In this document: positions 15,248 through 60,267 of the stretch, piece by piece
Layout: each line of letters begins with the position of its first letter
How positions within the stretch are numbered: the stretch's first letter is position 1
Source of the DNA: Vicinamibacteria bacterium
Lineage (GTDB): Bacteria; Acidobacteriota; Vicinamibacteria; Vicinamibacterales; JAENWD01
DNA: 64,000 bases
Direction: 5' to 3'
Assembly (NCBI GenBank): GCA_963837165.1
Contig: CAWIMD010000002.1
Span: 1,031,029-1,095,028 of the forward strand
Translations under genes and position numbers: made by a program
The notes under the pieces: generated by a model
Database searches by the model: none
Seen by the model: the letters and a program-made list of their open reading frames with translations, nothing else
What the model was told of the DNA's origin: nothing

Positions 15248-15273
15248 CAATTCCCAATTCCCAACGCCCAACC
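15248..15273 (-). repeat. Family F heptamer array, left arm (CAATTCC CAATTCC CAACGCC CAACC)
   Basis: Read directly. Inverted relative to 15307-15337. Confidence 0.85.
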
Positions 15274-15291
15274 GCTGCGGAGCGCAGTCGT

Positions 15292-15756
15292 TCAGCTGTC
15301 GGTCCCTTGGGAGTTGGGAGTTGGAGTTTGGGAGTTGATGTCGTCTCGCGCACTCGATTCCGTGCGCCTCCTGACGTTCGCCTCGATGAACCGGACGATG
15401 TCCTGCATCGGAGTGCCGGGCAGGAACACGCCGCCGATTCCCATCGCCTTCAGCTTCGGAATGTCCACGTCGGGGATGATCCCTCCGACGACGACGAGGA
15501 CGTCGTCGAGGCTCTGCCCGTGCAGCAGCTCCATCACGCGCGGGCAGATGTGGTTGTGCGCACCTGACAGGATCGAGAGGCCGATCACGTCGGCATCCTC
15601 CTGGAGCGCCGCCGACACGATCTGCTCCGGCGTCTGCCGCAGCCCCGTGTAGATCACCTCCATCCCGGCATCACGGAGCGCCCGCGCGATGACCTTCGCG
15701 CCGCGGTCGTGCCCGTCCAGGCCCGGCTTGGCAATCACCACTCGTATCGTCGGCAT
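15292..15756 (-). CDS. Methylmalonyl-CoA mutase B12-binding subunit
   Basis: [18 protein letters not shown] (DxHxxG cobalamin motif). ATG 15756, with an alternative at 15771. The last ~15 codons are encoded by the family F repeat arm. Confidence 0.85.
15307..15337 (+). repeat. Family F heptamer array, right arm (TTGGGAG x4, one unit degenerate)
   Basis: Read directly. Lies inside the 3' end of the B12-binding subunit ORF. Confidence 0.85.
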
Positions 15757-15767
15757 CTCAAATCTCT

Positions 15768-15823
15768 TCAATCGTCAATCGTCAATCGTCAATCGTCAAT
15801 CGTCAATCGTCAATGGTCAATGC
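15768..15823 (+). repeat. Family A heptamer array (TCAATCG x6 plus 2 degenerate units)
   Basis: Read directly. Fills the spacer between the two MCM subunit genes. Confidence 0.95.
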
Positions 15824-15826
15824 CCA

Positions 15827-18931: not shown

Positions 18932-19040
18932 GGGGATCTGGGGGGCTGGGGATCTGGGGATCTGGGGGGCTGGGGATCTGGGGATCTGGGGGCTGGGGGC
19001 TGGGGATCTGACGATCTGGGGGTTGGGGGATCTGGGATCG
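18932..19040 (+). repeat. Family B octamer array (GGGGATCT / GGGGGGCT, about 14 units)
   Basis: Read directly. Starts 11 nt after the gdhA TAG. Confidence 0.95.
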
Positions 19041-19051: not shown

Positions 19052-19074
19052 GTAGCGCAGGCCTTCAGGCCTGC
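19052..19074 (+). repeat. REP-like element a: GTAG-C-[GCAGGCC TTCA GGCCTGC]
   Basis: Perfect 7-bp stem, TTCA loop and a 5' GTAG. Confidence 0.8.
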
Positions 19075-19093
19075 CAACGGGCGCGCGGGCAGC

Positions 19094-19131
19094 CTGGGGG
19101 CTGCGGATCTGGGATCTGGGAGGTCTGGGGG
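19094..19131 (+). repeat. Family B array, degenerate (about 5 units)
   Basis: Reads GGGGGCT GCGGATCT GGGATCT GGGAGGTCT GGGGG. Ends 11 nt before the cupin ATG. Confidence 0.8.
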
Positions 19132-20620: not shown

Positions 20621-20665
20621 GAACCGTGGACATGTGAACCCGTGAACCCGAGAACCCGTGAACCT
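20621..20665 (-). repeat. Family E array (GGTTCACG/GGTTCTCG, about 5 units, read on the minus strand)
   Basis: The minus strand reads TAG ACG AGGTTCACGGGTTCTCGGGTTCACGGGTTCAC..., directly after the sulfite reductase stop. Confidence 0.9.
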
Positions 20666-29425: not shown

Positions 29426-30808
29426 ATGCTCTCCCGCCGCCGATTTCTGGCCACGCTGGCCGCGTCGCTGACCGCAGGCCGCGGCGCGCTCCATGCCGGT
29501 CCGCGCTCCCCGGCGTGGCACACGCCCGTTCCCGAGGCGGGCTGGGGGTACGGACAGGCGTTCGGCCTGGCCGTACGCCAGAACCGCCGCCTCCCCGAGG
29601 GGCTGCCACCCTCGCTGCCGAGAGCGGTCCCGCGGCTGCCGCCGCTGGACGCCGCGCAGACCGGCCGGCTCCTGCGCGCCCGGTTCCCCGATCTGAAACA
29701 GCGATTCCTGTTCGAGTACTACCCGTGGTACGGCAACAACCCCTGGCGGCACTGGAACCAGTGGGACCGCGTCCCTCCGTACGACCTGGCGGTGACGTCC
29801 GTGCCGGCTCTCGGCCCGTACGATTCCCGCGACCCCGCCGTCGTCGAACGGCACGCCCGCTGGATCGCGGAGGCCGGCGTCGGGGGCGTGAACATCAGCT
29901 GGTGGGGCCGTGGGAGCTGGGAAGACCTCGCGACGCCGCTCGTGATGGACGTCATGCGCGATCACGGCCTCAAGGTGGCGTTCCACCTCGAGCCGTACAA
30001 CGATTCGCGCACCGAAAACTACGCCGGCGACATCCAGTACCTGCTGCGTGAGTACGGCGACAAGCGGCGGTGGGACTGCTTCCTGCTCCTGCGGGACGCC
30101 GGCGGCAGGGAAGTGCCGGTCTTCAAGTCGTTCGCGACCCTGCTGCCACAGACCTCGACCGACTGTCACGGCGTCACGTCCCGTGTGGCGCTCTGGCGTC
30201 CCGACGGAACGTGGCGCCGTCAGACGGACACGGTACGCGACACGTTCCGAGGCGACTTCGACCGGATCTACCTGCTCGCCGACTCCGGCGCGCTGGACCA
30301 CGTCCAGGTCTGCGGCTTCGACGGCATCGCGATGTACGACAGCTTTCTCAGACCGACGCGGTGGCCGGATCTGGCAAAGGCCTGCCGCGACTTCCACCTC
30401 GTGTACTCGTTCAACATCAACTCGGGATTCGACGGCATCGCCCAGCGCAACGTGCCGGCGGACTCCTGTTATCGGCCGACCCCGTTCGAGCCGCCGGCCA
30501 ACCTCGATTTCACCGATCCGGACCAGCGGGAGCTGGCGCGCCGGCTGTCGGAACACCGCATGGAGGAATCGTTCCGGGCCACGCTGATCGTGCAGACCGA
30601 CCCGGCGCTGACCGACACCGGCGACGGCTTCTTCCTCGTCTACATCAACTCGTTCAACGAGTGGCACGAGGGCACGGCGATGGAGCCGGCGCGCGATCAC
30701 GCGGCGCTGCTGCCGCAGGAGTCGCCGTACGGCTACCACAACGCCGCCCAGGGCAACTACCGGCTGGCGTACCTCACCGAACGGCTGGGCGAACTGCTCG
30801 CCGGTTAA
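29426..30808 (+). CDS. Glycoside hydrolase family 99-like (endo-alpha-mannosidase-like), Tat signal
   Basis: Twin-arginine signal MLSRRRFLATL. Motifs FEYYPWYG, ISWWGRG and NSFNEWHEGT resemble GH99. Confidence 0.62.
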   Translation: MLSRRRFLATLAASLTAGRGALHAGPRSPAWHTPVPEAGWGYGQAFGLAVRQNRRLPEGLPPSLPRAVPRLPPLDAAQTGRLLRARFPDLKQRFLFEYYPWYGNNPWRHWNQWDRVPPYDLAVTSVPALGPYDSRDPAVVERHARWIAEAGVGGVNISWWGRGSWEDLATPLVMDVMRDHGLKVAFHLEPYNDSRTENYAGDIQYLLREYGDKRRWDCFLLLRDAGGREVPVFKSFATLLPQTSTDCHGVTSRVALWRPDGTWRRQTDTVRDTFRGDFDRIYLLADSGALDHVQVCGFDGIAMYDSFLRPTRWPDLAKACRDFHLVYSFNINSGFDGIAQRNVPADSCYRPTPFEPPANLDFTDPDQRELARRLSEHRMEESFRATLIVQTDPALTDTGDGFFLVYINSFNEWHEGTAMEPARDHAALLPQESPYGYHNAAQGNYRLAYLTERLGELLAG

Positions 30809-32260: not shown

Positions 32261-32288
32261 TCAGTCATCAGTCTTCAGTTGTCAGTCC
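32261..32288 (+). repeat. Family I heptamer array (TCAGTCN x4)
   Basis: Reads TCAGTCA TCAGTCT TCAGTTG TCAGTCC. Confidence 0.8.
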
Positions 32289-42164: not shown

Positions 42165-42165
42165 T

Positions 42166-42189: not shown

Positions 42190-42218
42190 GTACGGTCCAG
42201 CGACCTGACCCCTGGCCA

Positions 42219-42738: not shown

Positions 42739-42740
42739 CG

Positions 42741-45519
42741 CTATCTCAACTCCGTCCTGGGGTGGCACCGATCGCTCCCGACGTAATCGATCAGCCCGTT
42801 GACCAGCCTGGTGGTGAACGGATCCTTGCCATACGCGCCGGTGTCGAACGTCGAGATCACGACCGTGCCCTTGCCGAGCGTGAACTGCGCCGTGACGGCG
42901 TGGTTGTCGTTCAGCCAGCCGTAGAACTCGCCCGCCAGGACGTCGCCCGCCCGCCAGGCCGATTCGGGCACGCCCGCCAGCAGCCAGCGCGGCGTGGCGG
43001 CCGCCGCTTCGCCGCCGGTGATCGGGCCCACCGCCACCGCCGCGAACGGCGGGCTCTGCGGATTGACCCACGGGAAGTTGCTCACCCAGTTCCCGTCCAG
43101 CTCGTTGCGTCGCGCCACCGCGGAGAGGGTCGGCGTGGCGGCGAACGTGAACAGGACGCCGCGCGGCACGATCAGGGCCCGGCCGCCCGCCTCCACGAAC
43201 CGGCGGACCTCCGCGTCGAGCGTCGCGCTCACGACCGTCGTGCCTGGTGTCAGCCCGCCGGCCTTCCACGGCAGCATCGTCAGCGCGCCGTGCGGATCGT
43301 GAAGGGTCACCCGCGCCGGCGTCGCCGCCGCTCGCGGGTAGACAAAGAGGTCCTGGACGTTCCTCGCCATCACACCGCCGTCCCTGCCGTGCAGCTCGAG
43401 GCCAATGCGAAGCCGTGTGGGCACGGCCACGTCGGGCAGGTCGAGCATGACGTCTGCCAGATGCGCGAGGCCGGCCCGCGGCGCGGCGGCGGTCACGGGC
43501 AGCTCGCCATGACGCTCGCCCGCCGTCCATCGGAGCACGCCCCCGGACGGATCGGCCGCACTGTATCGGGACAGGTCCACCGACAGCGTCACGCGCTCTC
43601 CCCCGAGCGCGCTCGCCCGGTCCACCGCCGGTAGCAGCACGTCGTCCTGCTGCAGGTCCGACAGGAGCTCGCCGTAAATCTTGGGCTTTCGCCACATGTT
43701 CATGAGCCCGTTGGCTTCCCAGTTGATGTCGGTGAACTCCGTGATGACGTAGCCGCGGATGGACGCGTGCCGGCGAATCGTCTCGATCTCGTGTTTGAGG
43801 CTCTGGAACTGCCGCCACTGGGCCGCGTGCGCGAGCGCGCGATAGTCGGTGAAGAGCCGGTCGAAGCCGAACGCCGTGAATCGATCGAAGAGGCCCGCCG
43901 GACGCGTGATCGCCCGGCCGTCGAAGTCGCGGGGGAACCACCAGGGCAGCTCGTCGGGCAGGTCCGGCAGGCCCCAGTTGCCGAATTCCGACACGACCAG
44001 CGGCTCGTTCCCGGTCCGTCGTGCATCGCCGTGGGGACTGAAGGACCACGCCGGGCGCGATGCGAAATCGGCCACCCAGCGGTCCCAGCGGTCGGCGTTG
44101 TCGGGAATGGAGTAGGACCTGGTGGAAGTCGTCGATGTCGGTCGCGACGTGAAAGTTGTCGCAGCAGGCGCTGTTGTCCACGATGAGCCGCCCCAGCGGG
44201 GCGGTCCGCACCCTGGCCGCCTCGAACCACTCCGCCAGTCCGGCCCGCTCGTCGGCCTTCGTCATGTCGATGCCCCAGGCCTCGTTGATGAGGCTCTGGA
44301 TGACGATGGCCGGATGGTTCCAGTCGCGCGCGACCATCGCGTCGAAGATCGTCCGCCCTCGCGCCACGGAGGCCGTCGTCCAGTCGTCCCAGCTCGGCAC
44401 CTCGTACCAGACGAGCATGCCGGTTTCGTCGGCGGCCTCGAGGTACGTCGGATCGCACACCTTGATGTGGCAGCGAAGCAGGTTCAGCCCGAGGGCCCGC
44501 CCCTTCTTCATCTCGTCCACCACGTAGGCCTTGTCGGGGGTGCTGTAGATCGACTGCGGGTAGAAATCCTGATCGAGCGCCGCCCGCATGTAGAACGGCT
44601 CGCCGTTCAGGAGGAACTGCCCGTCGCGCGTCGTGAACTCCCGAAACCCGAACCGGGCGGTGACGTGGTCGGCCACGGGGCCATCCAGTGACACCGCGGC
44701 CGTGTACAGCTCGGGCGTCGCGGGCGACCACAGACGCGGATTCGACACGTTGGCCCAGACGTCCGCGTGGCCGGGCTTGGCCACGGGCACCGCCGGGACC
44801 GTCGCGACGGCCCGACCATCCGGCCCGACCAACGTCACGTGAAGAGCGGCCGGCCGGCCTGGCGCCGTGCCGGAGATGACGACCTCGAGTGAGACGGCAC
44901 CGGAGTTCTTCGGCGTCACGCGCACCGACTCGACGTACATCGCCGGCCGGACGTCCAGCCAGACCGGCTGCCAGAGCCCCGCGTTCTCGATGTACCAGTT
45001 CTGCTTGCCGCGGGGCAGCTGTTCATACGGCATGTCCGGGAAGCGCGGCGTGCCGCCGGGCGGCGTCGGCGGCGGATCGACGACGCGCACGAGCAGGTCG
45101 TTCGGGCCCGGCTTCGCGTGTTCCGTCACGTCGAGGGTGAACGGCGTGTAGGCGCCCTCATGGGTGCCGGCGCGCTGGCCGTTGACGAAGACCTCGGCGG
45201 CGTAGTCCACGGCGCCGAAGCGCAGGAGGACGTGCCGGGACCGCCCCGAGGCCGGCGCCGTGAAGGTGGCCCGATACCACGCCACGCCGAAGTAGTCGCG
45301 CAGGTCGTCGAACTGCGCGTTCCAGGAACGGCCGTCCTTGGCGGCACGCCAGCCGTCCGGGGGCAGCGTCGACGCCGTCAGGGTCCCGGCCGGATCGGTC
45401 AGGAGCGTCCAGCCGCTGATGCGCACGGGCTCGGCGCCGGCGGTCGCAGCCGCCAACAGCGCCAGCGCGGCGCTCGCCGCCCACACCAGGACCCGCTGTT
45501 CGACCCCTACACTCCGCAC
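42741..45519 (-). CDS. Glycoside hydrolase family 2-like, secreted; one frame break
   Basis: The N-terminal sugar-binding, Ig and TIM regions (VAWYR..., LRCHIKVCDPTYLEAADETGMLVWYEVPSW) read in ORF 42139..45519 up to DIDDFHQ. YSIPDNADRWDRWVADFASRP... then continues in ORF 42741..44075. The break is near 44112-44120. Confidence 0.78.
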
Positions 45520-45577: not shown

Positions 45578-47936
45578 TCACGGCGCCGCACGCGTCTGCT
45601 TCTGCACGATGCGGACCCTGATGGGCGTGGAGGTGTGCTCCGAGCTGGTGCCGCCGTTGGTCTCGACACGCGCCGTGACGTAGATCGTCTGCTCGACCGG
45701 CGTCGCGTTCTCGTCGGCGACGATCCAGAACGACCGGCTGTCCTGCTCCTCGGTGATGAGGATCCCGTTCAGCCCGATGTCGGGCACGGCGGCATGGAAC
45801 GGCAGGTTGTTCACCGACAGCGGCACGCGGCCCCTGAACCCGTTGGCACGCGTGATGGTCGCGGTGACCTTCGCGCGCCCGCCCGGCTCCAGCTCCACGA
45901 CGTCCGGCGTCACCGAGGCGACGCGAACGTCGGGCGGCGTGCCGACCGAGACGACGCTGACCGGGCTATCGGGCCGAGCCGTATGCGCGAGGACACGGGC
46001 GCCGCTCGTCGCATGCCCGGTCACCGCGAGCGGCACGATGGTATCGGCAGGTGCGGCGGCATCGGCCGTGAGCGTCACCGTGACGGCGTCCTCGCCGGCG
46101 AGAATGCGGCCCCGGGTCGCCGTCAGCCCGGCCGGGAGCCCGTCGAGCGACACGTCGATCGGGCCGTCGAACCGGTCCGCGCGCCACGCGGACACGGTCA
46201 CCGGCACCGTGCCGCCGCGCGGCAGGTTCGGGTTGGAGGGTGAGACGAAGAGCCGGTAGTCGGGCGACGGCGGCGCGATGGTCAGGCGATACGCGCGATT
46301 GGGACCACTCGTCCCGCGCGCGTCCGTCAGCCTGACGTAGTACGTCCCTGCGGCCGGGGCGGTGAACGTCAAGTACGAGTCCTGCCCGTACATCGGCCCG
46401 CCATCGTCGTTGCGGTACGTGAGGTCGAAGACCGGCAGCCCGTTCGGCGGGACCTCCGAGCCGGGCGGCAGCACCTCGACCTTGTACACCGGCCGCAGCA
46501 GCGCATGGCCCTCCGCCGTGGTGTCCTCGAAGCTCAGTCGCTGGCCGCGGAAGTCCACGAAGAAGGTGTCCTCGTCGGGTCCCTTCGGCAGCTGCTTGAC
46601 GCGAAGCAGCTCCCGGTCGACGTAGACGTAGTCGCCGCGGTGCAGCTCGTTCCACGCGAGCAGCCGGATGCCGTTGCCGGTGGAGCCGTGGTTCCTGGAG
46701 ATCGACGGTCGTTTCCCAGACCGGCCGTAGACGCGCCCGGGGCACGGGCCGGCCCTGCGCGTCCAGCACCTCGAGCACCGAGTCGAGCGACGAGCCGAGG
46801 CGTGCCGCCGCCACCTGGATGACGAGCCGCTCGCCCTTGCGCGCGGTCAGGCGGAAGAGGTCCGCGTCGGGCACGCCGCCGGCCTTCGTCAGGTGCCCGT
46901 TGACCGTCACGGGGACCGTCACGGCCTGGGCGATTTCGAGCCGGTCGTTGTCCTCGCGCTCCACGCGCTCCGGATAGCTGCCGAGAGCCACTTCCACCCG
47001 GTTGATCGGCTGCGTGACGCCCGGCACGCGCACCACCGCACGGTCGAGGCCAGGCTCGGGCGAGCCGGCGGTCGCGGTCGAGGCGCCATCGAGGTTGGCG
47101 CCCTCGATCTGGAGCGCCGCGCGGCCGCCCCGCGGGAGTCCCAGCGGAAATACGCTCGTGAGGACGGGCACCTCGCCGATCGTCACGCGGTAGATGTGGT
47201 GCCACCCACCGGCGGCATTCGCGTCGCCCACGCGGACGATCACCGGGCCATCGGCCGGCGGACGGTACACGAGCAGCGAGTCGCGGCCGCCCTTGAAATC
47301 GTCGTCTCGCGCGAGGGTTCGTCCCTCGGGAGACAGGAGGACGACGGTCGTATCCGCATCCGATCCGATGGCTGCCGCCACCGTGCGCACGACCAGGTCG
47401 CGACCCGCGCGGGCCTCGACGCGGTACAGGTCCACGTCGCCGCTCTTCGCGAGCTGGCCGTTGACCGTCGCGGGCGTCGCGATCGTGGTGGCCGACGCGG
47501 GCTCGTCGTTCGGCTCCTGCTCGACCAGCTCGCGTTCGATTCCGACCCACAGCGCCACGAAGTTGCTGGTCCCGAGCGGCGTGTGCAGGCGGAATCCCTG
47601 GCGCCCCGGTCTGACAGCGGCACCGGCCGTGACCGTCAGCCTGACGCGCGCCTTCTCGGCCTTGTCCTGGATGACGGCGCCGGTCTCGCCTGGCATCCGC
47701 GTGCGGATGTCGGGGCCCAGGTCCTCGAAGCCGTCGATGCTCGCGGTGAGGCTCTCGTCGGAGAAGAGCACCTTGTCGGCGCCCGCCAGGTTGGCGCCTT
47801 CGACGGTGAAGGTCGCCGTCGTGGCCCGCTGGATGCCGTACGGCGCGATCGAGAACACGACGGGCGGCCGCGTCTGCGCACCGGCCGCCAGCGGGATCAT
47901 CACCAGCCCCGCAGCGGCCGCAAATCCTCTGGTCAT
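45578..47936 (-). CDS. Large secreted protein with repeated pre-peptidase-C-terminal (PPC)/Ig-like modules; one frame break
   Basis: Repeated EQEPNDEPASA...VNGQL...DVDLYRV and EREDNDRLEIA...VNGHL...DADLFRL modules. The frame changes near 46690-46705 (WETTVD | SRNHGSTGNGIRLLAWNEL). Confidence 0.6.
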
Positions 47937-49318
47937 CGTCGTGCCACCTCGCGCCTGCCCTCCGTGGAACGCGGGCCGGCAATCAGATCGGCGAGGCGCC
48001 GGCCCGAGGCCGTCTCGAACAGCGTCACGGTGCCGTCGTACCGGCCTACGGCCAGCGTGCGGCCGTCGGGGCTGAACGCCAGTCCCTGCGACCAGTCGCT
48101 CTGCGGCGGGAGGGTCCTGACGGGCGCGCCGGTCGCCACGTTCCAGATCGTGATCTCCCGGTTGCTCGACGAGCTCGCCATCCGCGTGCCGTCTGCCGTG
48201 TACACGATCCGCAGGATGGCCCCCGTGTGCGCCAGGGTATTGCGGACGCGTGTGGCCGCCGATTCGCCGATCGTCCAGACCCTGAGGCGCTTGTCGTTGC
48301 CGCCCGCCGCCAGCTCACGGGTGCCGGGCCGGAAGGCCAGCGTCATCACGGCATCGGTGGGATCGGTGATCGTGTAGAGGCGCACGCCCTTTGCGACGTC
48401 CCAGATCTTCACCGAGCGATCGGCGGCCGCGGAGGCGAGCAGCGTGTTGTCCGGGCTGAAGGCCACGGCGAACACCGCTTCGGTATGCTCCTTCAGCACC
48501 CCGGTCAGCTTGCCCGTCGCGGTGTCCCACACCCGGATGATCCGGTCGTACCCGCACGAGGCCAGCCGCCGGCCGTCGGGGCTGAACGCCACGTGGTAGA
48601 CGTAGTCGCGGTGCCCGCTCAGCGTGAACGTGACGGCGCCGGTCGCGGCGTCGATCAACACCAGCTCGCCGAAGGCTCCCGGCGTGCCGCCCCCGGCGGC
48701 GATCTGCGTCCCGCCGGGACTCCAGGCCACCGCGCGCACCTGATCGGACAGGCCGCCCACGCGCGCCCGGACGCCGCCGCGCAGGTCGAGCAGGCGGACC
48801 TCGCGATACCCTGCCACTGCCAGCTCGGTTCCGTCCGGGCGAAAGGCAATCGAGGGAACCTCCGGGAGCACGGCGGCCTGCTGCTCCACGGGCGCCACCT
48901 TCTCGTCGAGCGAGGCGTGCCGCGGCGGCGAATACGTCGCGCCGGCCGCAATCCACGCCCGCAGCACCGCGATGTCCTCGGGCCGGAGATCGCTCTTGGG
49001 CGGCATCTTCGGCTTGGCACGCCCCTCGAGCTGCCTGATCATCGGGCTGTCGTCCGCCTGCCCGGGCACCACCGGCGGCCCGTCGTCGCCGCCCCGCATG
49101 ATGTCCTCGTAGGTTTCGAGGATGAGGCCCGCCTCGTTCTTCGCGGCGTTGTGGCAGCGGAGGCAGTTGGCCTCGAAGATCGGCGCGACGTCGCGGCCGA
49201 AGTCGGGCGCGGCCGTCGCGGCGGGTGCCGCCGTCGAGGGCGGCTGCGCCCGGGGCCCGCCCAGTGCGAGCAGCACGACGGACAGGGCCGCGCTCGCGGC
49301 GAAGGACGGCGGAGTCAT
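47933..49318 (-). CDS. Planctomycete-type cytochrome c (PSCyt1) domain plus WD40 repeat protein
   Basis: CLRCH heme motif in ...VAPIFEANCLRCHNAAKNEAGL.... Multiple WD40 blades (SGHRDYVYHVAFSPDGRRLAS..., RVWD, KIWD). Confidence 0.8.
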   Translation of the reverse strand: MTPPSFAASAALSVVLLALGGPRAQPPSTAAPAATAAPDFGRDVAPIFEANCLRCHNAAKNEAGLILETYEDIMRGGDDGPPVVPGQADDSPMIRQLEGRAKPKMPPKSDLRPEDIAVLRAWIAAGATYSPPRHASLDEKVAPVEQQAAVLPEVPSIAFRPDGTELAVAGYREVRLLDLRGGVRARVGGLSDQVRAVAWSPGGTQIAAGGGTPGAFGELVLIDAATGAVTFTLSGHRDYVYHVAFSPDGRRLASCGYDRIIRVWDTATGKLTGVLKEHTEAVFAVAFSPDNTLLASAAADRSVKIWDVAKGVRLYTITDPTDAVMTLAFRPGTRELAAGGNDKRLRVWTIGESAATRVRNTLAHTGAILRIVYTADGTRMASSSSNREITIWNVATGAPVRTLPPQSDWSQGLAFSPDGRTLAVGRYDGTVTLFETASGRRLADLIAGPRSTEGRREVARR

Positions 49319-51612
49319 CAGTGGTTGAAGAGGAACTCGCGCGACGTGAGGACCGCCCAGGCCAGGTCCTCGAGGCGCGCACGGCGGGCCGCCGGGGCCT
49401 GCGAGGCGCCCGGCCGCGTCAGCGCCCGCAGAAGGGACTCGCGCTCGGCGGGGGCCGGCAGCCGGCTCAGCGCCGAGAGATACAGCTGGTCGAGCACGTC
49501 GCCGTCGCTCTTCCCAGCCGCGACCATCCCCGCGATGACGCCGCCGTCCGCCCGGAGCTTGCCGTTCAGGGTGTCTCCGTTGATCTCGTGCAGCGCCTGG
49601 GGCAGCGTCGCGTCCTGCATGCGTTCGGCGGCGGACGTCACGATCCGGTCCGGGCGGCCGAAGACCGTCAGGAAGTACGAGTCGATCTTCGTGTCGGGCA
49701 GCTCGAGCGCCCGCGTGCCGCTCGGGAAGCCGCTGAACGCTTCCGGGACTCCGGTGACCTCCGAATAGGCGTCGAGGATGACTTCGGCCGGGAGGCGACG
49801 AATCAGGTAGTGCGAGTAGAACCGATCGTCTCTGTCATTGGCCGGCGTGGTCGCCGCCGAGCGCTGGTAGGCCGCCGAGGTCATGATGTCGCGGATCAGC
49901 GCCTTGACGTCGTAGCCGCGCTCGACGAACCGGGCGGACACCGCGCGGAACAGTGGCTCGTTCGACGAGGGATTCGTGTAGCGCAGGTCGTCCACGGGGT
50001 GCACGAGCCCCCGGCCGAAGAAGTTCGCCCACACGCGGTTCACGATGGCCCGCGCGAAGAGGGTGTTGTCGGGGCTCGTCGTCCAGCGTGCCAGGTACTC
50101 GCGACGGTCCTCGCGCGCATGGGCGGACATGGGCGTGCCGTCCAGCGGCCGCGGCGCGAGCGCCATGCCGAGCCGTGGGTGCAGGATGTCGCCGTCGGGC
50201 GTGGAGAACACCGTGGCGGTGTCGGCCTTGCCGGAGGGCGATTGATCCTCCTTGAACGAGACCCGGGCGAACAGGTTCGCGAAGGCGTAATAGTCCACCT
50301 GCGTCCACTTCTCGAGCGGGTGGTTGTGGCAGCGGGCGCAGGTCAGCGTCAGGCCGAGAAACGCCTGCGTGTAGTTCTCGGCCAGGTCGCCCGGGCTGCG
50401 GTGGATCAGGTAGTAGTTGGCGGCGCCGTTCTCGTCGGTGCGACCCGTCGCCGTGGCGATGGCGTAGACGAACCGGTCCCACGGCATGTTGGCCTTCACC
50501 GCGGCGCGGATCCAGCCGTAGAAATCGCGCACGTTGTTCTGGCCGAGCGCGCGGCTCGACACGAGCAGCAGGTCCGACCACTTGTACGCCCAGTAGTCCA
50601 CGAACTCGTCCCGCTCGAGGAGGCGGTCCACCAGCCTGGCGCGCCTGTCGGGCGATGGATCCGCGAGGAAGGCCTCGACCTCGGCTCGCGTCGGGAGGAT
50701 GCCCGCGGCGTCGAGATAGGCCCGGCGGATGAACGTGCCGTCGCTCGCGAGCGACGACGGCTCGATGTGGAGCTGCCGCAGCTTGTCGAGGACGAGATCG
50801 TCGATCGCTCCGAACCGCGGGGCGTTCGCGTAGGAGGCGTCGGTCACCGCACCCGGAAACGGCGCGCGCACGCGTGCAAGCGCGACGCCGGTCAGGAAAC
50901 TGGCGCCGATCGCGGTCTCGCCCGCCGCCTTGATCGTGACGGCGCCGTCGTCTTCCACGTGCGCCACCGTCTCGTCGCCGGATCCGAACCGCGTCCACCG
51001 GGTCACATCGGCCCGTGTGCCGTCCGTGAAGCGGGCCGTGACGCGCAGGGCCAGGTGGTCGCCCACGGCAAGCGTGTCGTCTCCCGGCGTGACCTCGAGG
51101 CTGGCCAGCGCGGGGTCGTGATCCGTCGGTGCGGGCAGCCCCGAGGCAATCCAGCCCGAGAGGATCTGGTATTCCGGCGAGCCCACCGAGAAGCGGTGCC
51201 CGCCGGTGTGCGGCACCGTCTCGGTCGGCTTGAGCAGGATCAGGCTCTTGGCCGGCTCCATCTTGTTCACCCGGCGGCCTCCGGCCTGCCGCGTGATGGT
51301 GTCGTAGTCGGCCGGCGGGTCGTAGCCGCGCAGGGTGAGTGCAAAGCCGTTCTTGCCCGCCGCCGCGCCGTGGCACGCGCCGGAGTTGCAGCCCGCCTTG
51401 GTCAGCACGGGGATGACCTGGTTGCGGAACGAGATGGGCCGGACCATGCTCAGCGGGGCCGCCCCGCCGGGCATGGCTGGGGCCGTGACGTGCGACGAGG
51501 CAGGCCTCATCGCCGCCAGGCCGGAGGACGGCTGCGCGAAGAGGGATGGGCCGCCGAGCAGGAGGCAGGCGACGCCGAGCAGCGCCGATGCCCGCCAATC
51601 GTCAGTCGTCAT
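49318..51612 (-). CDS. DUF1549/DUF1553 (PSCyt2/PSD1) domain protein with a Big_2-like insert
   Basis: VLTKAGCNSGACHG, DEFVDYWAYKWSDLL, CARCHNHPLEKWTQ and a DUF1553-type C-terminus. ATG 51612 lies inside repeat A3. Confidence 0.85.
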   Translation of the reverse strand: MTTDDWRASALLGVACLLLGGPSLFAQPSSGLAAMRPASSHVTAPAMPGGAAPLSMVRPISFRNQVIPVLTKAGCNSGACHGAAAGKNGFALTLRGYDPPADYDTITRQAGGRRVNKMEPAKSLILLKPTETVPHTGGHRFSVGSPEYQILSGWIASGLPAPTDHDPALASLEVTPGDDTLAVGDHLALRVTARFTDGTRADVTRWTRFGSGDETVAHVEDDGAVTIKAAGETAIGASFLTGVALARVRAPFPGAVTDASYANAPRFGAIDDLVLDKLRQLHIEPSSLASDGTFIRRAYLDAAGILPTRAEVEAFLADPSPDRRARLVDRLLERDEFVDYWAYKWSDLLLVSSRALGQNNVRDFYGWIRAAVKANMPWDRFVYAIATATGRTDENGAANYYLIHRSPGDLAENYTQAFLGLTLTCARCHNHPLEKWTQVDYYAFANLFARVSFKEDQSPSGKADTATVFSTPDGDILHPRLGMALAPRPLDGTPMSAHAREDRREYLARWTTSPDNTLFARAIVNRVWANFFGRGLVHPVDDLRYTNPSSNEPLFRAVSARFVERGYDVKALIRDIMTSAAYQRSAATTPANDRDDRFYSHYLIRRLPAEVILDAYSEVTGVPEAFSGFPSGTRALELPDTKIDSYFLTVFGRPDRIVTSAAERMQDATLPQALHEINGDTLNGKLRADGGVIAGMVAAGKSDGDVLDQLYLSALSRLPAPAERESLLRALTRPGASQAPAARRARLEDLAWAVLTSREFLFNH

Positions 51613-51665
51613 TCAATCGTCAATCGTCAATCAATCGTCAATCGTCAATCATCAATCGTCAATCA
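51596..51665 (+). repeat. Family A heptamer array (TCAATCG and TCAGTCG/TCATTCA/TCAATCA variants, about 10 units)
   Basis: Read directly. Includes the DUF1501 stop codon (51663-51665) and the DUF1553 start codon (51610-51612). Confidence 0.95.
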
Positions 51666-53042
51666 GAAGAGCTCCCGCACTGCCTCGACGCCGCGGTCCA
51701 CGATGGGAATGGGCCGGCCCTGCAGGCCCGGCAGCTCCTTTTCGAGATCGATGCCGAGACCGTAGAGGATCGTCGCCGCGACCGAGGCCGCCGGGATCGG
51801 CCGGTCCCTCGGGTATGCCCCCATCTCGTCGGAGGCGCCAATCACCTGGCCACCCTTGACGCCGCCACCCGCCATCGAGACCGTCCAGCACTGCGGCCAG
51901 TGATCGCGGCCGCCGGCGGGGTTGATCTTCGGGGTGCGCCCGAACTCGCCCATCGCCACGACCATCGTGCTGTCCAGCATGCCGCGCTCCGTGAGGTCCT
52001 CGAGCAGCGAGGCGTAGGCGTTGTCGAACATCGGGCCGAGCAGGTCGCGATACGCCGAGATGGGGCTGAACGGCGCCGAGCCGTGGATATCCCACGTGAT
52101 CTCGTTGAACACCGTCTCGAACATGTTCACGGTGACGAATCGCACGCCGGCCTCGATCAGCCGACGCGCAAGCAGGCAGCTCATCCCGAACCGGTTCCGC
52201 CCGTACCGCGCCTTGACCGCATCCGGCTCCTGCGACAGGTCGAACGCCGCGCGCGCGTTCGACGAGGAGATCAGGGTGTACGCCTGGTTGAACGACGAGT
52301 TCAGGAGCCGCGCGTCCGGACTCGCCTCGAATCCCTTCACCGCCGAGTCCACCAGGTCGCGGAGACTGCGACGCTGGTCGGCGCGGATCGTCGTGAGATA
52401 GTCGGGCGGCAGCAGGTCGGGCACCTGGAAGTGCGGATCGGCCGGGTCGGCGCCCAGCACGAACGGGTCGTAGGCCTTGCCGAGGAAGCCGGCCGTCTGC
52501 CCGTGCGGCATGTTGCCGCCGGTGTTCCCGATCGGGTGCGGCAGCAGGACGTGCGGCGGGATGTCGCCTTTCGGCCCTTTCAGGTACCCCAGGATCGACC
52601 CGACGTGCGGCGACTCGGTCCCGGCCTGGAACAGCCGCCCCGTCTGCATCACCTGGTGCCCGGCGTCGTGCACGGCGACGCCCGCGTAGTGCACCGACCG
52701 CAGCAGCGCGAACTTGTCGGCGTGCGTGGCCATCCGCGGAAAGTTCTCGCTGATCTGGATCCCCGGGACGTTCGTCTTGATCGCCTTGTACGGGCCTCGA
52801 ATCTCCGACGGGGCGTCGGGCTTCATGTCCCAGGTGTCGAGCTGGCTGGGCGCGCCGACCAGGAAGAGGCAGATGCAGTTGACGTCCCTGTCGGTCCGCA
52901 CGGCCCCGGCGGCCTCGAGCGCCGCCAGGTCCGACAGCGTCAGGCCGAGGCCCGCCAGGCCGAGCGCCCCGGCGTGCAGGAAGTCGCGCCGCGTCAGCCC
53001 GTCACAGAAGTGCACCGCCTTGTGAGCGTCGAGCTTGATCAT
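51663..53042 (-). CDS. DUF1501 domain protein (sulfatase/alkaline-phosphatase-like), Tat signal
   Basis: ATG 53042 (MIKLDAH...TRRDFLHAGALGLAG). FLVGAPSQLDTWDMKP and GGRDHW motifs. The upstream part of ORF 51663..53204 (SCPSCPSCP) is repeat translation. Confidence 0.9.
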   Translation of the reverse strand: MIKLDAHKAVHFCDGLTRRDFLHAGALGLAGLGLTLSDLAALEAAGAVRTDRDVNCICLFLVGAPSQLDTWDMKPDAPSEIRGPYKAIKTNVPGIQISENFPRMATHADKFALLRSVHYAGVAVHDAGHQVMQTGRLFQAGTESPHVGSILGYLKGPKGDIPPHVLLPHPIGNTGGNMPHGQTAGFLGKAYDPFVLGADPADPHFQVPDLLPPDYLTTIRADQRRSLRDLVDSAVKGFEASPDARLLNSSFNQAYTLISSSNARAAFDLSQEPDAVKARYGRNRFGMSCLLARRLIEAGVRFVTVNMFETVFNEITWDIHGSAPFSPISAYRDLLGPMFDNAYASLLEDLTERGMLDSTMVVAMGEFGRTPKINPAGGRDHWPQCWTVSMAGGGVKGGQVIGASDEMGAYPRDRPIPAASVAATILYGLGIDLEKELPGLQGRPIPIVDRGVEAVRELF

Positions 53043-53095
53043 CGGGCCCCCGGATGGGCCCCATGATACGCGCCAGGGCGCGCGAGGACCAGACC

Positions 53096-53183
53096 GGAAC
53101 ACGAAGACGGAACACGAAGGGCACGAAGGGCACGAAGGGCACGAAGGACACGAAGGGCACGAAGGGCACGAAGGGCACGAAGG
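53096..53183 (+). repeat. Family C nonamer array (GCACGAAGG/ACACGAAGG, about 10 units)
   Basis: Read directly. Confidence 0.95.
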
Positions 53184-53203
53184 CAGGAACTTCAGTTCGG
53201 CCA
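53184..53203 (+). repeat. Truncated REP-like element d (CAGGAAC TTCA GTTCGGCC)
   Basis: The right arm and loop are identical to element c in the opposite orientation. The left arm is replaced where it abuts array C3. Confidence 0.55.
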
Positions 53204-53214
53204 TCCGCGACCGG

Positions 53215-53523
53215 CTACGGAGCGGCCGACAGCACCTCGTAGTGCGTCACGAACGGCTCCCGCTCCAGCAGGAACTCGTCATCGTCCGGATAGTACCTGG
53301 CGCGATTGTAGTCGTCGCCGGCGAAGCGCCGGATGGCCTCGACCGACTCCCACAGGGTCGTGAGCACGAAGTGGGCGACGTCGCCTTCGAGGCGGCGGAA
53401 CACCATCACGCCGCGATTGCCGGGGGTCGCCGCGTATTCGGCGAGCCCGGTCCCGAGCAGGTACGCGTGGTACGAATCGGCCTTCGATGCGGGCACTCGG
53501 CCGTGCCAGATGCGAGCGATCAT
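53215..53523 (-). CDS. Antibiotic-biosynthesis-monooxygenase (ABM/Dabb)-like small protein
   Basis: MIARIWHGRV...FVLTTLWESVEAIRRFAGDD...HYEV pattern. ATG 53523. Confidence 0.62.
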   Translation of the reverse strand: MIARIWHGRVPASKADSYHAYLLGTGLAEYAATPGNRGVMVFRRLEGDVAHFVLTTLWESVEAIRRFAGDDYNRARYYPDDDEFLLEREPFVTHYEVLSAAP

Positions 53524-57332: not shown

Positions 57333-58826
57333 TCAGTGCTCAGCCCAGTCCAGGGCACGACTTACCGCCTTCTTCCAGCCCCGGTACAGCCGCGTCCGCT
57401 GCTCGTCGCCCATGACCGGCGTGAAGGTGCGGTCCACCGCCCAGTTCCGGGTGACATCGCCCGGATCGTTCCAGTAGCCGACCGCCAGCCCCGCCAGGTA
57501 CGCCGCTCCCAGCGCGGTGGTTTCGGCCACGATCGGACGCCTTACGGGGACGCCCAGCAGGTCCGCCTGGAACTGCAGCATGGCGTTGTTGGCCGCGGCG
57601 CCGCCGTCCACCTTGAGGCTCGAGAGCGTCAGTCCCGCTTCCTGCTGCATCAGGTCCAGCACGTCGCGCGTCTGATAGGCCATCGAGTCCACCGTCGCCC
57701 TGGCAATGTGGCCGATGATGGTGTCGCGGGTCAGGCCGATGATGAGGCCGCGGGCGTAGGGATCCCAGTAAGGAGCGCCGAGGCCGACGAAGGCCGGCAC
57801 GAGGTACACGCCGCCCGCGTCGTCCACCGTGGCGGCGAGGCGCTCGACTTCGGCCGAGCTCTGGATGGCCTTCAGCCCGTCGCGCACCCACTGGACGGCG
57901 GCGCCGGCCACGAAGACCGCGCCCTCGAGGCAGTAGGTGGTCTCGCCGTTCAGGCGCCACGCGACCGTGGTCAGCAGGCCGTGCTTGGAGGGCACGGCTT
58001 TCGGGCCGGTGTTCAGGAGGAGGAAGCAACCCGTGCCGTAGGTGTTCTTCGCCGAGCCCGGCTCGAAGCAGGCCTGGCCGAACAGCGCCGCCTGCTGGTC
58101 GCCGGCGGCGCCCGTGATCGGCACGGCGGCCCCGAGCAGCGACGCCTCGGTTTCGCCGAACCACTCGCTGTTGGATCGCACCTCCGGCAGCATCGCGCGC
58201 GGCACGCCGAGGATCTCGAGCAGCGTATCGTCCCACTCCATCGTGTGGATGTTGAAGAGGAGCGTGCGCGCCGCGTTGCTCACGTCGGTCACGTGACGCT
58301 TGCCGCCCGTGAGACGCCAGATCAGGAACGAGTCCACGGTGCCGAACAGCACGTCGCCGCGCTCGGCGCGTGCGCGGAGCCCGGGCACCGAGTCGAGCAG
58401 GAACTTCAGCTTGGTCCCCGAGAAGTACGGGTCGAGCACCAGGCCGGTCCGCGAGCGGAACATCTCCTCGAGGCCGTCGGCCTTGAGCTCTTCGCAGATG
58501 CGCGCGGTGATCCGGCTCTGCCAGACGATGGCGTTGGCGACGGGCTTGCCGGTCTCGCGATCCCAGACGATCGTGGTCTCGCGCTGGTTCGTCACGCCGA
58601 TCGCGCAGATCTGCGTCGCCGAGAGCCCCGCGCGGGCCAGGGCCTCACGCGCGGTCGCGATCTGCGAGCTCCAGATCGCCTCCGGGTCGTGCTCGACGTG
58701 CCCGGGCGCGGGGTAGATCTGCGGGAACTCCCGCTGAGCGGACGACACGAGCTGTCCGTCCTTCCGGAACACGATGGCCCGGCTGGACGTGGTGCCCTGG
58801 TCCAGCGCCAGGATGAACTGACTCAT
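57333..58826 (-). CDS. glpK: Glycerol kinase
   Basis: [21 protein letters not shown] and [10 protein letters not shown] motifs. ATG 58826 overlaps the glpF stop. Confidence 0.93.
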
Positions 58827-59602
58827 CGCGCCTGCTCCATCAACGGGTGCCGGTGGCCGACGAACCAATCGTAGACGAACCCGCCCGCGGGCCCACCGAT
58901 CAGCGGGCCGACGATCGGCACCCACCACCACGAGTGGCCGGCTGTGAACACGCCGCTCCCCCATCCTGCCAGGAACGTGAACAGCCGGGGTCCGAAGTCG
59001 CGCGCCGGGTTGATGGCGTACCCGGCGTTGAGGCCGAACGTGGTGCCGATGAGCAGCACCAGCAGGCCGACGATCACCGGGCCGATATGGGGAGGCGGCG
59101 CCAGGTTCTTCTTGTCGCTGATCGCGAAGACCACGCCGACGAGCAGCGCCGTGCCGACAATCTGGTCGATCAGGCCGCCCGTCGTCGACAGCCACGGCTG
59201 CGGGTAGGTGGCGAAGATCCCGGCGGTCGCCATGGTCCCGGTGATCTGGCGCGTGCCCCCGTCGAAGTGCACGAACGCGTCGTGATAGGTGAGGAGGACC
59301 AGCGCCGAGGCGACGAAGGCGCCGGCGGTCTGCGCGAGCACGTACGGGCCCACCTTGGACCACGGGAAGCCGCGGAGCGCCGCGGCCGCAACCGTGACGG
59401 CCGGGTTCAGGTGCCCGCCCGACACGCCGCCGGCCACGTACACGCCCATCATCACGGCCAGTCCCCACCCGATGTTGATCGAGAGGTACTGGCCGGTCGT
59501 GCCGCCGCCGAGGGTGACCTGCGCGACGACGCCCGCGCCGAACACGATCAGGATGAAGGTGCCGAGGAACTCGGCCCAGGCTTCACGAGTGGTGGTGGAC
59601 AC
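58823..59602 (-). CDS. glpF: Aquaglyceroporin (MIP family)
   Basis: Two NPA boxes (HLNPAVT and [10 protein letters not shown]). Confidence 0.9.
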
Positions 59603-59635
59603 GCGTCTTGTGCCTCCGGACAGGCTGCCGTGTGA

Positions 59636-60226
59636 TCAGGGATTGAGCGACTCGGCGCGCCAGCCCTCGCCCGCCCGGACGTAGAGCATCCGCTCGTGCA
59701 GCCGGGACTCGCGCGCATGCCAGAACTCGATGCGCTCGGGGACGAGCCGGTACCCGCCCCAGTGCGGCGGACGCGGCACCGGCGCGCCGGCATATCGCGC
59801 CTCGGTCTCGGTGTAGCGGGCCTCGAGCTCGGCGCGCGAGGCGATCGGCGCGCTCTGCTCCGAGGCCCAGGCCGCCAGCTGGCTGCCGCGGGGGCGGCCG
59901 GCAAAGTAGGCGTCGGACTCCTCGGCGGAGACCTGCGTCACCGGACCCTCGACGCGTACCTGCTCGTCGATCCACGGCCAGTAGCCGCAGAGCGCCGCCC
60001 GCGGGTTCGCGGCCAGGTCCTGTCCCTTCCTGGATCGGTAGTTGGTGAAGAAGACGAAGCCGCGCGCGTCGATGCCCCGCAGGAGGACCACCCGCGCGGA
60101 CGGCTGGCCGCCGGCCGAACAGGTGGCCAGCGTGACGGCAACCGGCTCGAACGGCGCGTCGCGGCTCGCCCTCGCGAACAGCTCCTGAAAGAGCGCAATC
60201 GGGTCCGACACGGGCACGAAGGCCAA
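59636..60226 (-). CDS. pdxH: Pyridoxamine 5'-phosphate oxidase
   Basis: RVVLLRG...FFTNYRSRKG...IEFWH...RLHERMLY motifs. TTG 60226 start, uncertain. Confidence 0.86.
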   Translation of the reverse strand: MAFVPVSDPIALFQELFARASRDAPFEPVAVTLATCSAGGQPSARVVLLRGIDARGFVFFTNYRSRKGQDLAANPRAALCGYWPWIDEQVRVEGPVTQVSAEESDAYFAGRPRGSQLAAWASEQSAPIASRAELEARYTETEARYAGAPVPRPPHWGGYRLVPERIEFWHARESRLHERMLYVRAGEGWRAESLNP

Positions 60227-60230
60227 GGGT

Positions 60231-60267
60231 ACACGAAGGACACGAAGGGCACAAAGGTGCCCGAAGG
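60231..60267 (+). repeat. Family C nonamer array (ACACGAAGG x2, GCACAAAGG, TGCCCGAAGG)
   Basis: Read directly. Contains the hairpin GGGCAC-AAAG-GTGCCC (60247-60262). Confidence 0.85.

Follow-up and report, generated by a model that had tools for sequence, protein, structure and literature searches.

Hypervariable tandem arrays of 7–9-nt words in the intergenic spacers of a Vicinamibacteria genome

In a 64,000-nt stretch of a Vicinamibacteria genome (contig CAWIMD010000002.1, hereafter the window), 21 head-to-tail arrays of 7-, 8- or 9-nt units, falling into nine families of repeat words (A to I), occupy the spacers and termini of genes. These arrays change in length by whole units at a rate orders of magnitude above that of point substitution, and they are almost entirely confined to dispensable sequence. 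We read them, with a probability of about 0.5, as lineage-wide hypervariable minisatellites with 7–10-nt units, self-perpetuating slippage satellites confined to dispensable spacers; the Vicinamibacteria sequence compared for this reading amounts to about 250 kb in all.

Arrays in gene spacers and their length in a sister strain

Arrays were called with Tandem Repeats Finder (TRF) on the window, and each locus was then inspected together with its flanks. All 21 arrays of the initial annotation were recovered where it had placed them, its family assignments proved correct, and their total length of 1,196 nt agrees with its figure of about 1.2 kb. Under a strict filter (period 6–10, at least 3 copies, score of at least 40), the window contains 18 arrays compared to a mean of 0.03 in 30 dinucleotide-preserving shuffles, confirming a strong enrichment over shuffled DNA. 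Matches within arrays range from 76 to 97% (TRF), and copy numbers from 3 to 15 with no mode at four. The range of 4–15 copies first reported holds for most arrays, but not for the three weakest, at 15248 (about 2.4–3.5 degenerate units), 19094 (degenerate) and 60231 (3.0 units). Units measure 7, 8 or 9 nt here and also 10 nt in relatives; they follow one another without unique spacers, unlike the 24–48-nt repeats and similar-length spacers of CRISPR loci. The arrays are homogeneous in blocks, runs of identical units being flanked by degenerate ones, as expected from slippage. Their GC content is 56%, in a window that has 68–74% along its length and about 70% overall.

The sister strain used for comparison is represented by an independent metagenome assembly from the European Nucleotide Archive (contigs L001, L017 and L087), which is 99.3–99.6% identical to window positions 7.7–59.3 kb; since this assembly carries many single-base, gene-breaking indels, 1-nt differences were disregarded. 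Eighteen of the 19 arrays in the compared stretch are found at the same places, while the array at 20621 is largely deleted (39 of 44 nt), and the presence of the same arrays in an independent assembly excludes an assembly artefact. Eight of the 12 indels of at least 3 nt fall within the 7–9-nt arrays, which make up 2.3% of the 51.6 kb aligned (P about 4e-11), and one further such indel lies in a 24-nt coding repeat array. This comparison of copy number at orthologous spacers, which the initial annotation had proposed, thus shows that eight of about 19 arrays differ in length, mostly by whole units, with 11 unchanged, including that at 32261. With about 40% of arrays altered in length where about 0.5% of bases differ, the arrays behave as hypervariable minisatellites. 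In a second, near-identical strain pair (L085 and L086, 99.0%), an array is one unit apart and REP-like hairpins are inserted.

Genes were mapped with a codon-usage caller, Pfam and the gene calls on the sister-strain contigs. Among spacers of at least 20 nt, arrays occupy 11 of 20 between co-directional genes, four of five between convergent genes and one of seven between divergent genes, the scarcity in divergent spacers being a trend only (Fisher P = 0.08). The typical array begins 0–11 nt past the upstream stop and mostly ends about 11–19 nt short of the downstream start, leaving room for a ribosome-binding site; exceptions to this gap are the arrays at 37258, 51596, 53095 and 20621. Gene ends are entered at 15307, 36152/36238 (a tail of roughly 60 codons), 37258 and 51596, each time outside Pfam domains, and the observation that every array lies in a spacer or gene terminus without interrupting a conserved domain held wherever Pfam boundaries could be checked. 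The first 15 kb is indeed array-free, because it has almost no spacers: genes there overlap or abut, leaving only one or two spacers of at least 20 nt. Two further placement rules were considered and rejected. Family E is not reliably in sense after a stop, as six of eight cases read GGTTCAC just past the stop, which is not significant, and an excess of TAG stops beside arrays is marginal (12 of 19 versus 10 of 31, P = 0.04) and appears because TGA is used in the spacer-free, overlapping ATGA/GTGA junctions.

The arrays are listed below by window position, with the change of length in the sister strain where there is one.

15248–15272: family F inverted, CAATTCC ×2 and degenerate units, left arm of a long hairpin; begins 3 nt past the TAG stop of a response-regulator-like gene (14283–15244, + strand)
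15307–15337: family F, TTGGGAG ×4.4, right arm of the hairpin; within the final ~15 codons of the gene for the methylmalonyl-CoA mutase small subunit (15292–15756, − strand), beyond the B12-binding domain
15768–15821: family A, TCAATCG ×7.7 (CGATTGA in the operon sense); fills the mutase large/small-subunit spacer, 5 nt from the stop and 11 nt from the start; −14 nt (2 units)
18932–19036: family B, GGGGATCT/GGGGGGCT ×13, G-rich in sense, canonical G-quadruplex motif; begins 11 nt past the glutamate dehydrogenase stop; +46 nt
19094–19125: family B, degenerate, GGGATCT-like, ~4 units; ends 17 nt before a cupin gene start (19143)
20621–20664: family E octamer, GTGAACCC ×4–5 (GGGTTCAC in sense); begins 4 nt past the sulfite reductase stop (TAG, about 20669, − strand); −39 nt
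30808–30925: family B inverted, ATCCCCAG ×14.8; takes up the entire stop-to-stop spacer of convergent GH99 and amidohydrolase genes; +24 nt (3 units)
32261–32287: family I, TCAGTCN ×3.9 (NGACTGA in sense); ~19 nt upstream of the amidohydrolase start (− strand)
32321–32359: family E, AGAACCG/TGAACCG ×5.6 (GGTTCTC/GGTTCAC in sense); begins 1 nt past the ADP-ribosylglycohydrolase stop (− strand)
36152–36236: family C, ACACAAAGG ×5 then ACACGAAGG ×4; read through as the C-terminal tail of a sugar-binding-protein open reading frame (ORF), beyond its Pfam domain; −14 nt
36238–36336: family H, CCCACAAN ×10–12, canonical G-quadruplex motif on the − strand; holds the TAA stop (36307–36309) of the sugar-binding-protein ORF and extends to the permease start; +4 nt
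37258–37324: family D, GGGAGGAT/AGGAGGAT ×8.4, Shine-Dalgarno-like GGAGG in sense; runs from the permease stop (TAG, 37289–37291) to the PfkB kinase start (37320)
38257–38290: family A, TCAATCG ×4.9; PfkB/GFO-oxidoreductase spacer, 4 nt from the stop and 15 nt from the start
40975–41015: family E, GGTTCAC/GGTTCTC ×5.7; begins 4 nt past the TAG stop of a 503–526-aa gene and enters the 3′ end of a convergent HpcH-like ORF
41356–41439: family D inverted, ATCCTCCC ×10 (GGGAGGAT in sense), alone among the arrays in lying between divergent genes; immediately precedes the start of the HpcH-like ORF (41352, − strand)
42122–42161: family E, GGTTCAC/GGTTCCC ×5.7, followed by a REP-like hairpin; begins 3 nt past the TAG stop of a 3-keto-disaccharide hydrolase gene
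42204–42242: family G, CCTGATC ×5.7 (GATCAGG in sense); begins 6 nt past the NIPSNAP gene stop (− strand)
42693–42739: family C variant, GAACACAAA ×5.1; fills the 63-nt spacer from the stop of gene 42741–43703 to the NIPSNAP start (42677), both on the − strand
51596–51664: family A, TCAATCG ×10; holds the TGA stop of a DUF1501 gene as well as the ATG and first codons of a PSCyt2/PSD1 gene (− strand); +7 nt (1 unit)
53095–53183: family C, CACGAAGGG ×8–9, adjoining a REP-like hairpin; lies in the spacer from gene 53215–53523 to the DUF1501 gene start; +9 nt (1 unit)
60231–60257: family C, ACACGAAGG ×3.0; DUF2062/pyridoxamine-phosphate oxidase spacer, − strand genes

Other variable or rearranged segments were observed near the arrays. 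A 24-nt repeat, CGACTCCGCTCAGGGCAGGCCCGG ×4.3, at 14802–14905, lies in frame within the response-regulator-like gene and is about 2 units longer (+47 nt) in L017, so that a coding minisatellite varies beside the intergenic ones. Substitution density between the window and L017 reaches 69/kb at 20–21 kb and 88/kb at 22–23 kb, with 17/kb between and 1–11/kb elsewhere, which suggests recombination tracts around the sulfite reductase gene. The HpcH/HpaI-aldolase-like ORF (40993–41352, − strand) encodes only 119 aa, covers just profile positions 157–220 and looks truncated compared to the orthologous region of L002 and L003, in a locally rearranged segment between the arrays at 40975 and 41356.

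Array positions and words in related and distant genomes

The host had been predicted to be Acidobacteria-like, and protein comparisons confirmed that this soil organism is a Vicinamibacteria bacterium (Acidobacteriota). The closest genomic relatives of the window's 503-aa protein are Vicinamibacteria metagenome-assembled genomes (MAGs), at 74–75% identity, with planctomycete homologues at ~50%, and the methylmalonyl-CoA mutase large subunit has no match above 86% identity among 5.8 billion proteins, its named matches being Vicinamibacterales. Three syntenic Vicinamibacteria MAG loci (L002, L003 and L007) were compared with window positions 30.9–49.3 kb, together with five mutase-operon loci (L083–L086 and L088) whose large subunit is 82–85% identical to that of the window. 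Because L085 and L086 are the strain pair described above, the six mutase loci represent five independent lineages. A metagenome scan for further orthologous loci returned only eight contigs, most of them short, and an exact-protein look-up of the PfkB kinase gave no match, its start codon lying inside an array and probably being called differently.

In all six loci, an array stands between the genes for the large and small subunits of the mutase:

Window: CGATTGA ×7.7
L083: CGAATGA ×6.9
L084: GAGAACTC ×2.5, then CGAATGA/CGAACGA/CGAGCGA ×16.7
L085 and L086: GAGAACTC ×4.5 and ×5.6
L088: GGACGAG ×6.7

Apart from GAGAACTC, these words form a one-step series, CGATTGA, CGAATGA, CGAACGA/CGAGCGA, GGACGAG, a chain which indicates that the array locus is old and persists while its word drifts by mutation and homogenisation. 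At the dehydrogenase 3′ spacer the words are likewise related, GGGGATCT ×13 in the window and GGTTGATCR ×9–12 in L084 and L088. In the stretch syntenic with L002, L003 and L007, orthologous spacers often hold arrays throughout, but made of other words:

Amidohydrolase/ADP-ribosylglycohydrolase spacer: window TCAGTCN and AGAACCG; L002 CCAACCTGAC ×8; L003 CCAACCTGAC ×2.5
Permease/PfkB spacer: window GGGAGGAT ×8; L002 GAACCTGT ×15; L003 GAACCTGAA ×4
PfkB/GFO spacer: window TCAATCG ×5; L002 GGTTCACA ×6 (L007 likewise); L003 CTCCTGAT ×6
Spacer 3′ of the 503-aa gene: window GGTTCAC ×6; L002 none; L003 CCTTCGCG ×5 (L012 has an array of this word in the spacer too)

The PfkB/GFO spacer thus holds three words in three lineages, and the occurrence of unrelated words in one spacer across related genomes shows that a given gene does not depend on one given word; we observed no correspondence between word and gene. 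The double array at 36152/36238 is an insertion in the window, the genes of L002 and L003 overlapping there, and array density is 0.5–2.3 per 10 kb in relatives versus 2.8–3.3 in the window. The conservation in close relatives on which the initial annotation had staked its interpretation is therefore partial: position is often kept, but the word is kept only between near-identical strains and otherwise drifts or is replaced.

Two arrangements were seen in the relatives alone. In L002 (7738–7852 and 8780–8830) and L007 (7777–7824 and 8755–8798) the PfkB gene stands between mutually complementary arrays, GAACCYGT upstream and GGTTCACA downstream, which is not so in the window or L003; if co-transcribed, these arrays could pair over at least 40 nt, looping out the ORF. 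L083 carries at 13103–13611 a 23S_rRNA_IVP-family gene, absent from the other relatives, with three tandem ~25-nt repeats (GGAACTGACGnnGnCGGGTCCTC) on each side in inverted orientation, which looks like a small inserted cassette.

Words were further compared after normalisation for rotation and strand, counting pairs with at most one mismatch against letter-shuffled words (300 trials). Fifteen such pairs occur within genomes, compared to 1.0 expected (maximum 5), and 18 between genomes, compared to 1.4 expected (maximum 7), several of the latter at non-orthologous spacers; the family G word GGGATCR, for instance, is also found in L088 at a different spacer. Loci of one family moreover have the order of variant units in common: positions 18932–18977 and 30808–30853 are complementary over 46 nt at 100%, and 37275–37324 and 41390–41439 over 50 nt at 98%, variant-unit order included. 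The inference that recurring words argue against purely local slippage is thus upheld, recurrence and common variant-unit order together calling for something beyond it. No flanking sequence common to same-family arrays was seen in the window, which argues against a carrier mobile element, and a common unit order without common flanks supports, at the level of the sequences compared, copying or conversion between unlinked arrays.

Under the slippage-satellite reading, the arrays would arise and survive through replication slippage or unequal exchange in which expansion prevails on balance, purifying selection would trim them at promoters, ribosome-binding sites and folded protein domains, and ectopic gene conversion or template switching between arrays would keep the small common vocabulary. 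Effects on expression would then be by-products rather than a word-specific function, and might include cistron spacing, extra Shine-Dalgarno-like units (family D), hairpins at adjoining inverted arrays and quadruplex potential (family B).

Several observations weigh against this reading. The recurrence of a few words at non-orthologous spacers across genomes is unexplained by slippage alone, and the presence of an array in the mutase spacer of all five lineages despite the high rate of length mutation is hard to reconcile with strict neutrality, since an unbiased random walk would be expected to reach zero units often. Slippage also does not explain how far the words extend taxonomically. We counted exact three-unit arrays of two window words, two published words and four composition-matched controls in 2.9 million IMG/VR contigs: TCAATCG occurs in 36 contigs and GGTTCAC in 21, compared to 1–3 for each control, 5 for the cyanobacterial word STRR1 (CCCCAGT) and 107 stretches for TAACTGA (at least 80 loci listed). 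The window words are thus 7- to 36-fold commoner than the controls, of which there are only four, a small sample; the matching contigs span 33–67% GC, and because some are related the counts are inflated, although the contrast still holds. Half of the TCAATCG and GGTTCAC arrays lie inside naive ORF calls, these ORFs being created by the stop-free word itself. Nor does slippage account for the CACAAAGAA, TCTCCGTG and CTCCTGA-type words in planctomycete loci and in Geobacter (PMC2700814): the Pirellulales locus L004 carries CACAAAGAA/CACAAAGGA, the family C nonamer of the window (compare the array at 42693), at two loci, and the Planctomycetaceae locus L005 carries TCTCCGTG ×3.

Some IMG/VR contigs are very array-rich, with 9, 12 and 18 arrays of 7–8 nt in about 14 kb in L022, L044 and L054, respectively. 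In L044, AAGAACYC, one mismatch from the window's GAGAACCC units, stands at eight loci, and L052 and L073 (GC 0.65–0.67) carry CGATTGA and CCTTCGTG arrays, as does the window. The window also encodes a planctomycete-type trio (PSCyt1-WD40, PSCyt2/PSD1 and DUF1501, at 47933–53042), which, together with the ~50% identical Pirellulales/Planctomycetaceae homologues of the 503-aa protein, indicates, from gene content, gene pools common to these soil lineages; soil Vicinamibacteria and planctomycetes also have some array words in common.

The same recurrences speak for word-specific cis elements: a trans-acting protein would bind each word in tandem, on single-stranded RNA or on DNA, and the arrays would thereby adjust translation, the stability of mRNA or the architecture of DNA nearby; candidate readers are cold-shock-domain proteins, ribosomal protein S1, a CsrA-like protein and IHF/HU-type nucleoid proteins. 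Consistent with this possibility are the restricted vocabulary common to non-orthologous sites within and between genomes, the enrichment of the words over controls across phyla and in viral contigs, and the fact that every relative has an array in its mutase spacer. TTCTTTGTG, the rotation-free complement of family C, is similar to what we take to be the preferred heptamer of cold-shock proteins. Two published systems bear on the same point. In Geobacter metallireducens, Aklujkar et al. 2009 (PMC2700814) described words of 7–9 nt, in 3–5 tandem copies at tens of loci (GGACCGG, TCTCCGTS[Y] and MTYCTGA), often as opposite-strand pairs, including one in the intercistronic proB/proA spacer; TCTCCGTS[Y], one of the paired tandem sites, is the same word as the TCTCCGTG of L005, and MTYCTGA matches the CTCCTGAT/CCCTGAT words of L003 and the window. 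Those sites were read as binding sites for IHF/HU-type global regulators, which makes their words putative regulator sites, and differ from the window arrays in a copy number fixed at 3–5 per site, with strain-level variability not reported (PMC2700814). MacGregor 2015 (PMC4679880) described TAACTGA direct repeats in marine Beggiatoaceae, some Cyanobacteria and Bacteroidetes, for which a trans-acting reader was proposed. As in the window, these heptamers are repeated in tandem within spacers, frequently a few nt before a start, and one word occurs in distant phyla; family I (NGACTGA in sense, ~19 nt before a start codon) is one or two mismatches from TAACTGA and similarly placed. The Beggiatoaceae, however, have a single word in 2–6 copies at a consistent position upstream of starts, whereas the window has many words, mostly abutting stops and in inconsistent orientation, only family I being similar. 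Against word-specific elements stand the unrelated words in the same spacer of related genomes, the lack of a constant reading direction along the transcript in families A, B, C and D, the highly unstable copy number, the entry of arrays into coding termini, and the fact that no candidate binding protein is encoded beside the arrays in the window. On balance we regard this explanation as possible, yet doubtful.

A broader form of the idea is that a small vocabulary of tandem words is kept in spacers across unrelated phyla and viral contigs by a conserved reader or by a repeat-generating or copying activity. The words in question would be TAACTGA, TCAATCG/CGAATGA, GGTTCAC/GAACCYGT, CACRAAGRA, TCTCCGTG, CTCCTGA(T) and GGGGATCT/GGGATCR, the taxa Acidobacteriota, Planctomycetota, Desulfobacterota, Cyanobacteria, Beggiatoaceae and Bacteroidetes, and the reader possibly a single-strand-binding cold-shock, S1 or CsrA-type protein or a nucleoid protein. 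We hold this to be unlikely; if true, the Vicinamibacteria arrays would be one dense, multi-word case of a general, undescribed cis-element system and not junk satellites.

Possible roles in DNA and RNA structure, transcript ends and phase variation

The initial annotation had proposed a G3-4N4-6 periodicity as the unifying feature of most families; on this structural reading, G-quadruplexes (G4) or i-motifs formed by such arrays would modulate transcription, termination or replication. A canonical motif (G3+N1-7 ×4) is present in four of the 21 arrays, leaving 17 without one; only families B, D and H exceed an absolute G4Hunter score of 1.2, with values of 1.3–2.1. Words with a G3 or C3 run make up 11 of 21 (five or six of the nine families), close to the 22–45% expected for random words, and G3 runs are lacking in families A and I and in the greater part of E and C. 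On these counts the quadruplex was rejected as a common denominator, and the proposed unifying periodicity is not supported. Orthologous spacers, moreover, alternate between G-rich and non-G-rich words, and there is no preference for four units.

The nearest parallel to this structural idea comes from Rehm et al. 2015 (PMC4692102), who described quadruplex-forming GGGAATC and GGGGA(C/T)T heptamers in Xanthomonas and Nostoc, similar GGGNATC and GGGGAYT arrays forming G4 in vitro and having the same placement bias. In both systems the repeats are intergenic, mainly between co-oriented ORFs and rare between divergent ones; in related species they recur at the same spacers and vary in length and sequence; their neighbours are ordinary metabolic genes; and no function was found for them (PMC4692102). 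The Xanthomonas and Nostoc repeats lie preferentially within 50 bp of ORF ends (PMC4692102), and the words of window families B (GGGGATCT) and G (GGGATCA) are close kin to theirs. The difference is that those genomes have one dominant G-rich word each and a four-unit preference, whereas the window has at least nine families, most of them not G4-capable, in 3–15 units without a peak at four. A general role of non-B structure in the arrays is accordingly one that we consider quite improbable.

RNA structure was examined at the arrays as a group and singly. Selection for unstructured words was rejected, the mean percentile against letter-permuted words being 0.53, although GATC-containing words are more structured than their permutations. 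Only the F and inverted-F arrays form a hairpin: the RNA of 15240–15345, which spans them, folds with −54.1 kcal/mol (z = −6.7), between convergent genes and without a U tract. This inverted-pair architecture occurs once only in the window (15248/15307) and matches the opposite-strand paired sites of Geobacter metallireducens. At the same place the response-regulator gene and its promoter (window 14201–15292) are inverted relative to L083–L086 and L088 (about 12100–13200 in each); in these five relatives the regulator is read in the same direction as the mutase small subunit and IleRS, and the new convergent junction of the window is the site of the hairpin.

Such hairpins raise the alternative that, in a genome without terminators of hairpin and U tract, arrays take the place of intrinsic terminators or stabilise 3′ ends, above all where inverted arrays pair into long hairpins. 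Most arrays do begin 0–11 nt from a stop, convergent spacers are mostly occupied, the F pair folds strongly between convergent genes, and in the planctomycete loci L004 (7252–7360), L005 (17028–17110) and L008 (4891–5000) arrays form close inverted pairs with hairpin arms of 7–9-nt units. In the 30–45 kb region, canonical terminators are fewer than in shuffles (1 found versus 4.4 expected), and no terminator-like site (hairpin and U tract) lies at an array there, on which ground intrinsic terminators as such were rejected. Most window arrays, however, are single and not inverted pairs, the words as a group are no more or less structured than permuted ones, and several arrays lie inside conserved operons (mutase large/small subunit, permease/kinase) where termination is not expected. 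Better suited to that role are the REP-like GTAG hairpins that stand apart from the arrays in these spacers. We consider a role of the arrays at transcript ends improbable. A Rho-utilisation-like sense strand, C-rich and G-poor, was not found, there being no consistent C>G bias array by array, and a known RNA family or tRNA-derived origin was rejected, as the window contains no Rfam hits or tRNAs.

In the REP-like family of the array spacers, GTAG precedes a GC-rich stem whose loop is TTCA or CTTCAG, as in CCGTACGTAGGGCCGAACTTCAGTTCGGCC. Vicinamibacteria loci have this family conserved among them, with copies in the window (19055–19075, 42163–42192 and 53184–53205) and in L083, L085, L086, L088, L002 and L007, and L085 and L086 are polymorphic for the insertion of one copy of 51 nt. 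REPs associated with RAYT (REP-associated tyrosine transposase) are imperfect palindromes preceded by GTAG; the arrays themselves are not palindromic and are therefore not of the REP or bacterial interspersed mosaic element (BIME) type.

The contingency simple sequence repeats (SSRs) of host-adapted pathogens have 1–5-nt units in ORFs or promoters of surface or virulence genes, which they switch on and off. With these the arrays have slippage-driven gain and loss of units in common, and phase variation of the flanking genes would draw on the high copy-number mutability and on the overlap of some arrays with start or stop codons (51596, 37258 and 36238). The flanking genes, however, belong to housekeeping metabolism (B12-dependent mutase, glutamate dehydrogenase, sulfite reductase and sugar kinase), the arrays stay outside the functional parts and folded domains of their products, so that frame changes affect short tails only, and no array lies between identifiable −35 and −10 elements. 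Phase variation is thus disfavoured and seems to us highly improbable, in line with the conclusion reached for Xanthomonas and Nostoc (PMC4692102).

Relation to known repeats and significance

The initial annotation had described a dispersed, multi-family intergenic system in a GC-rich, Acidobacteria-like genome, resembling the short tandemly repeated repetitive (STRR) sequences of cyanobacteria. That description stands, with the taxon now specified as Vicinamibacteria, but STRR sequences are not the only comparable bacterial system, given the parallels in PMC4692102, PMC4679880 and PMC2700814. The STRR consensus words are CCCCAGT, TTGGTCA and CAACAGT, and no window word matches them. The likeness to the heptamers of heterocystous cyanobacteria (Mazel et al. 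1990, as cited in PMC4692102) lies in several tandem-heptamer families at many unlinked, mainly intergenic loci. The window differs in its phylum, in units of 7, 8 and 9 nt (10 in relatives) at 70% GC, and in words whose three-unit arrays are commoner in IMG/VR (36 and 21 contigs) than those of STRR1.

By class, the arrays fall in the long SSRs with 5–11-nt units, and by sequence and taxon they belong to neither the STRR nor the GGGNATC family. For long SSRs of large, GC-rich, non-pathogen genomes, Huang and Mrazek 2014 (PMC4060949) and PMC4692102 give a heptamer excess, an intergenic bias and a proposed origin in polymerase slippage, and Mrazek et al. 2007, as cited in PMC4692102, found heptamer SSRs and long SSRs over-represented in large GC-rich genomes. 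The window arrays correspond in being head-to-tail repeats of such units far above chance, with an intergenic bias and in a GC-rich, free-living host whose source contig alone measures 1.71 Mb. The earlier work is a statistical survey, in the available parts of which Vicinamibacteria, persistence at orthologous spacers and shared vocabularies were not found described. Our literature searches likewise found no description of these words or of such repeats in Vicinamibacteria, so that a feature known from cyanobacteria, Xanthomonas, Beggiatoa and Geobacter is apparently not yet described in this lineage.

Intergenic arrays of 7–9-nt units have been known since 1990 in cyanobacteria and from 2007–2015 in other bacteria, without an established function or origin. 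To these the present analysis adds a host that is new at the level of the phylum (Vicinamibacteria, abundant in soil), evidence of mutability at the strain level, and the drift series of the mutase spacer. Arrays of this kind are likely to break short-read assemblies and to mislead gene callers at gene termini, and they are ready-made, high-resolution strain markers for uncultured soil Acidobacteriota. The mutase series, together with the words found across taxa, makes the choice between neutral slippage and a selected element a testable question.

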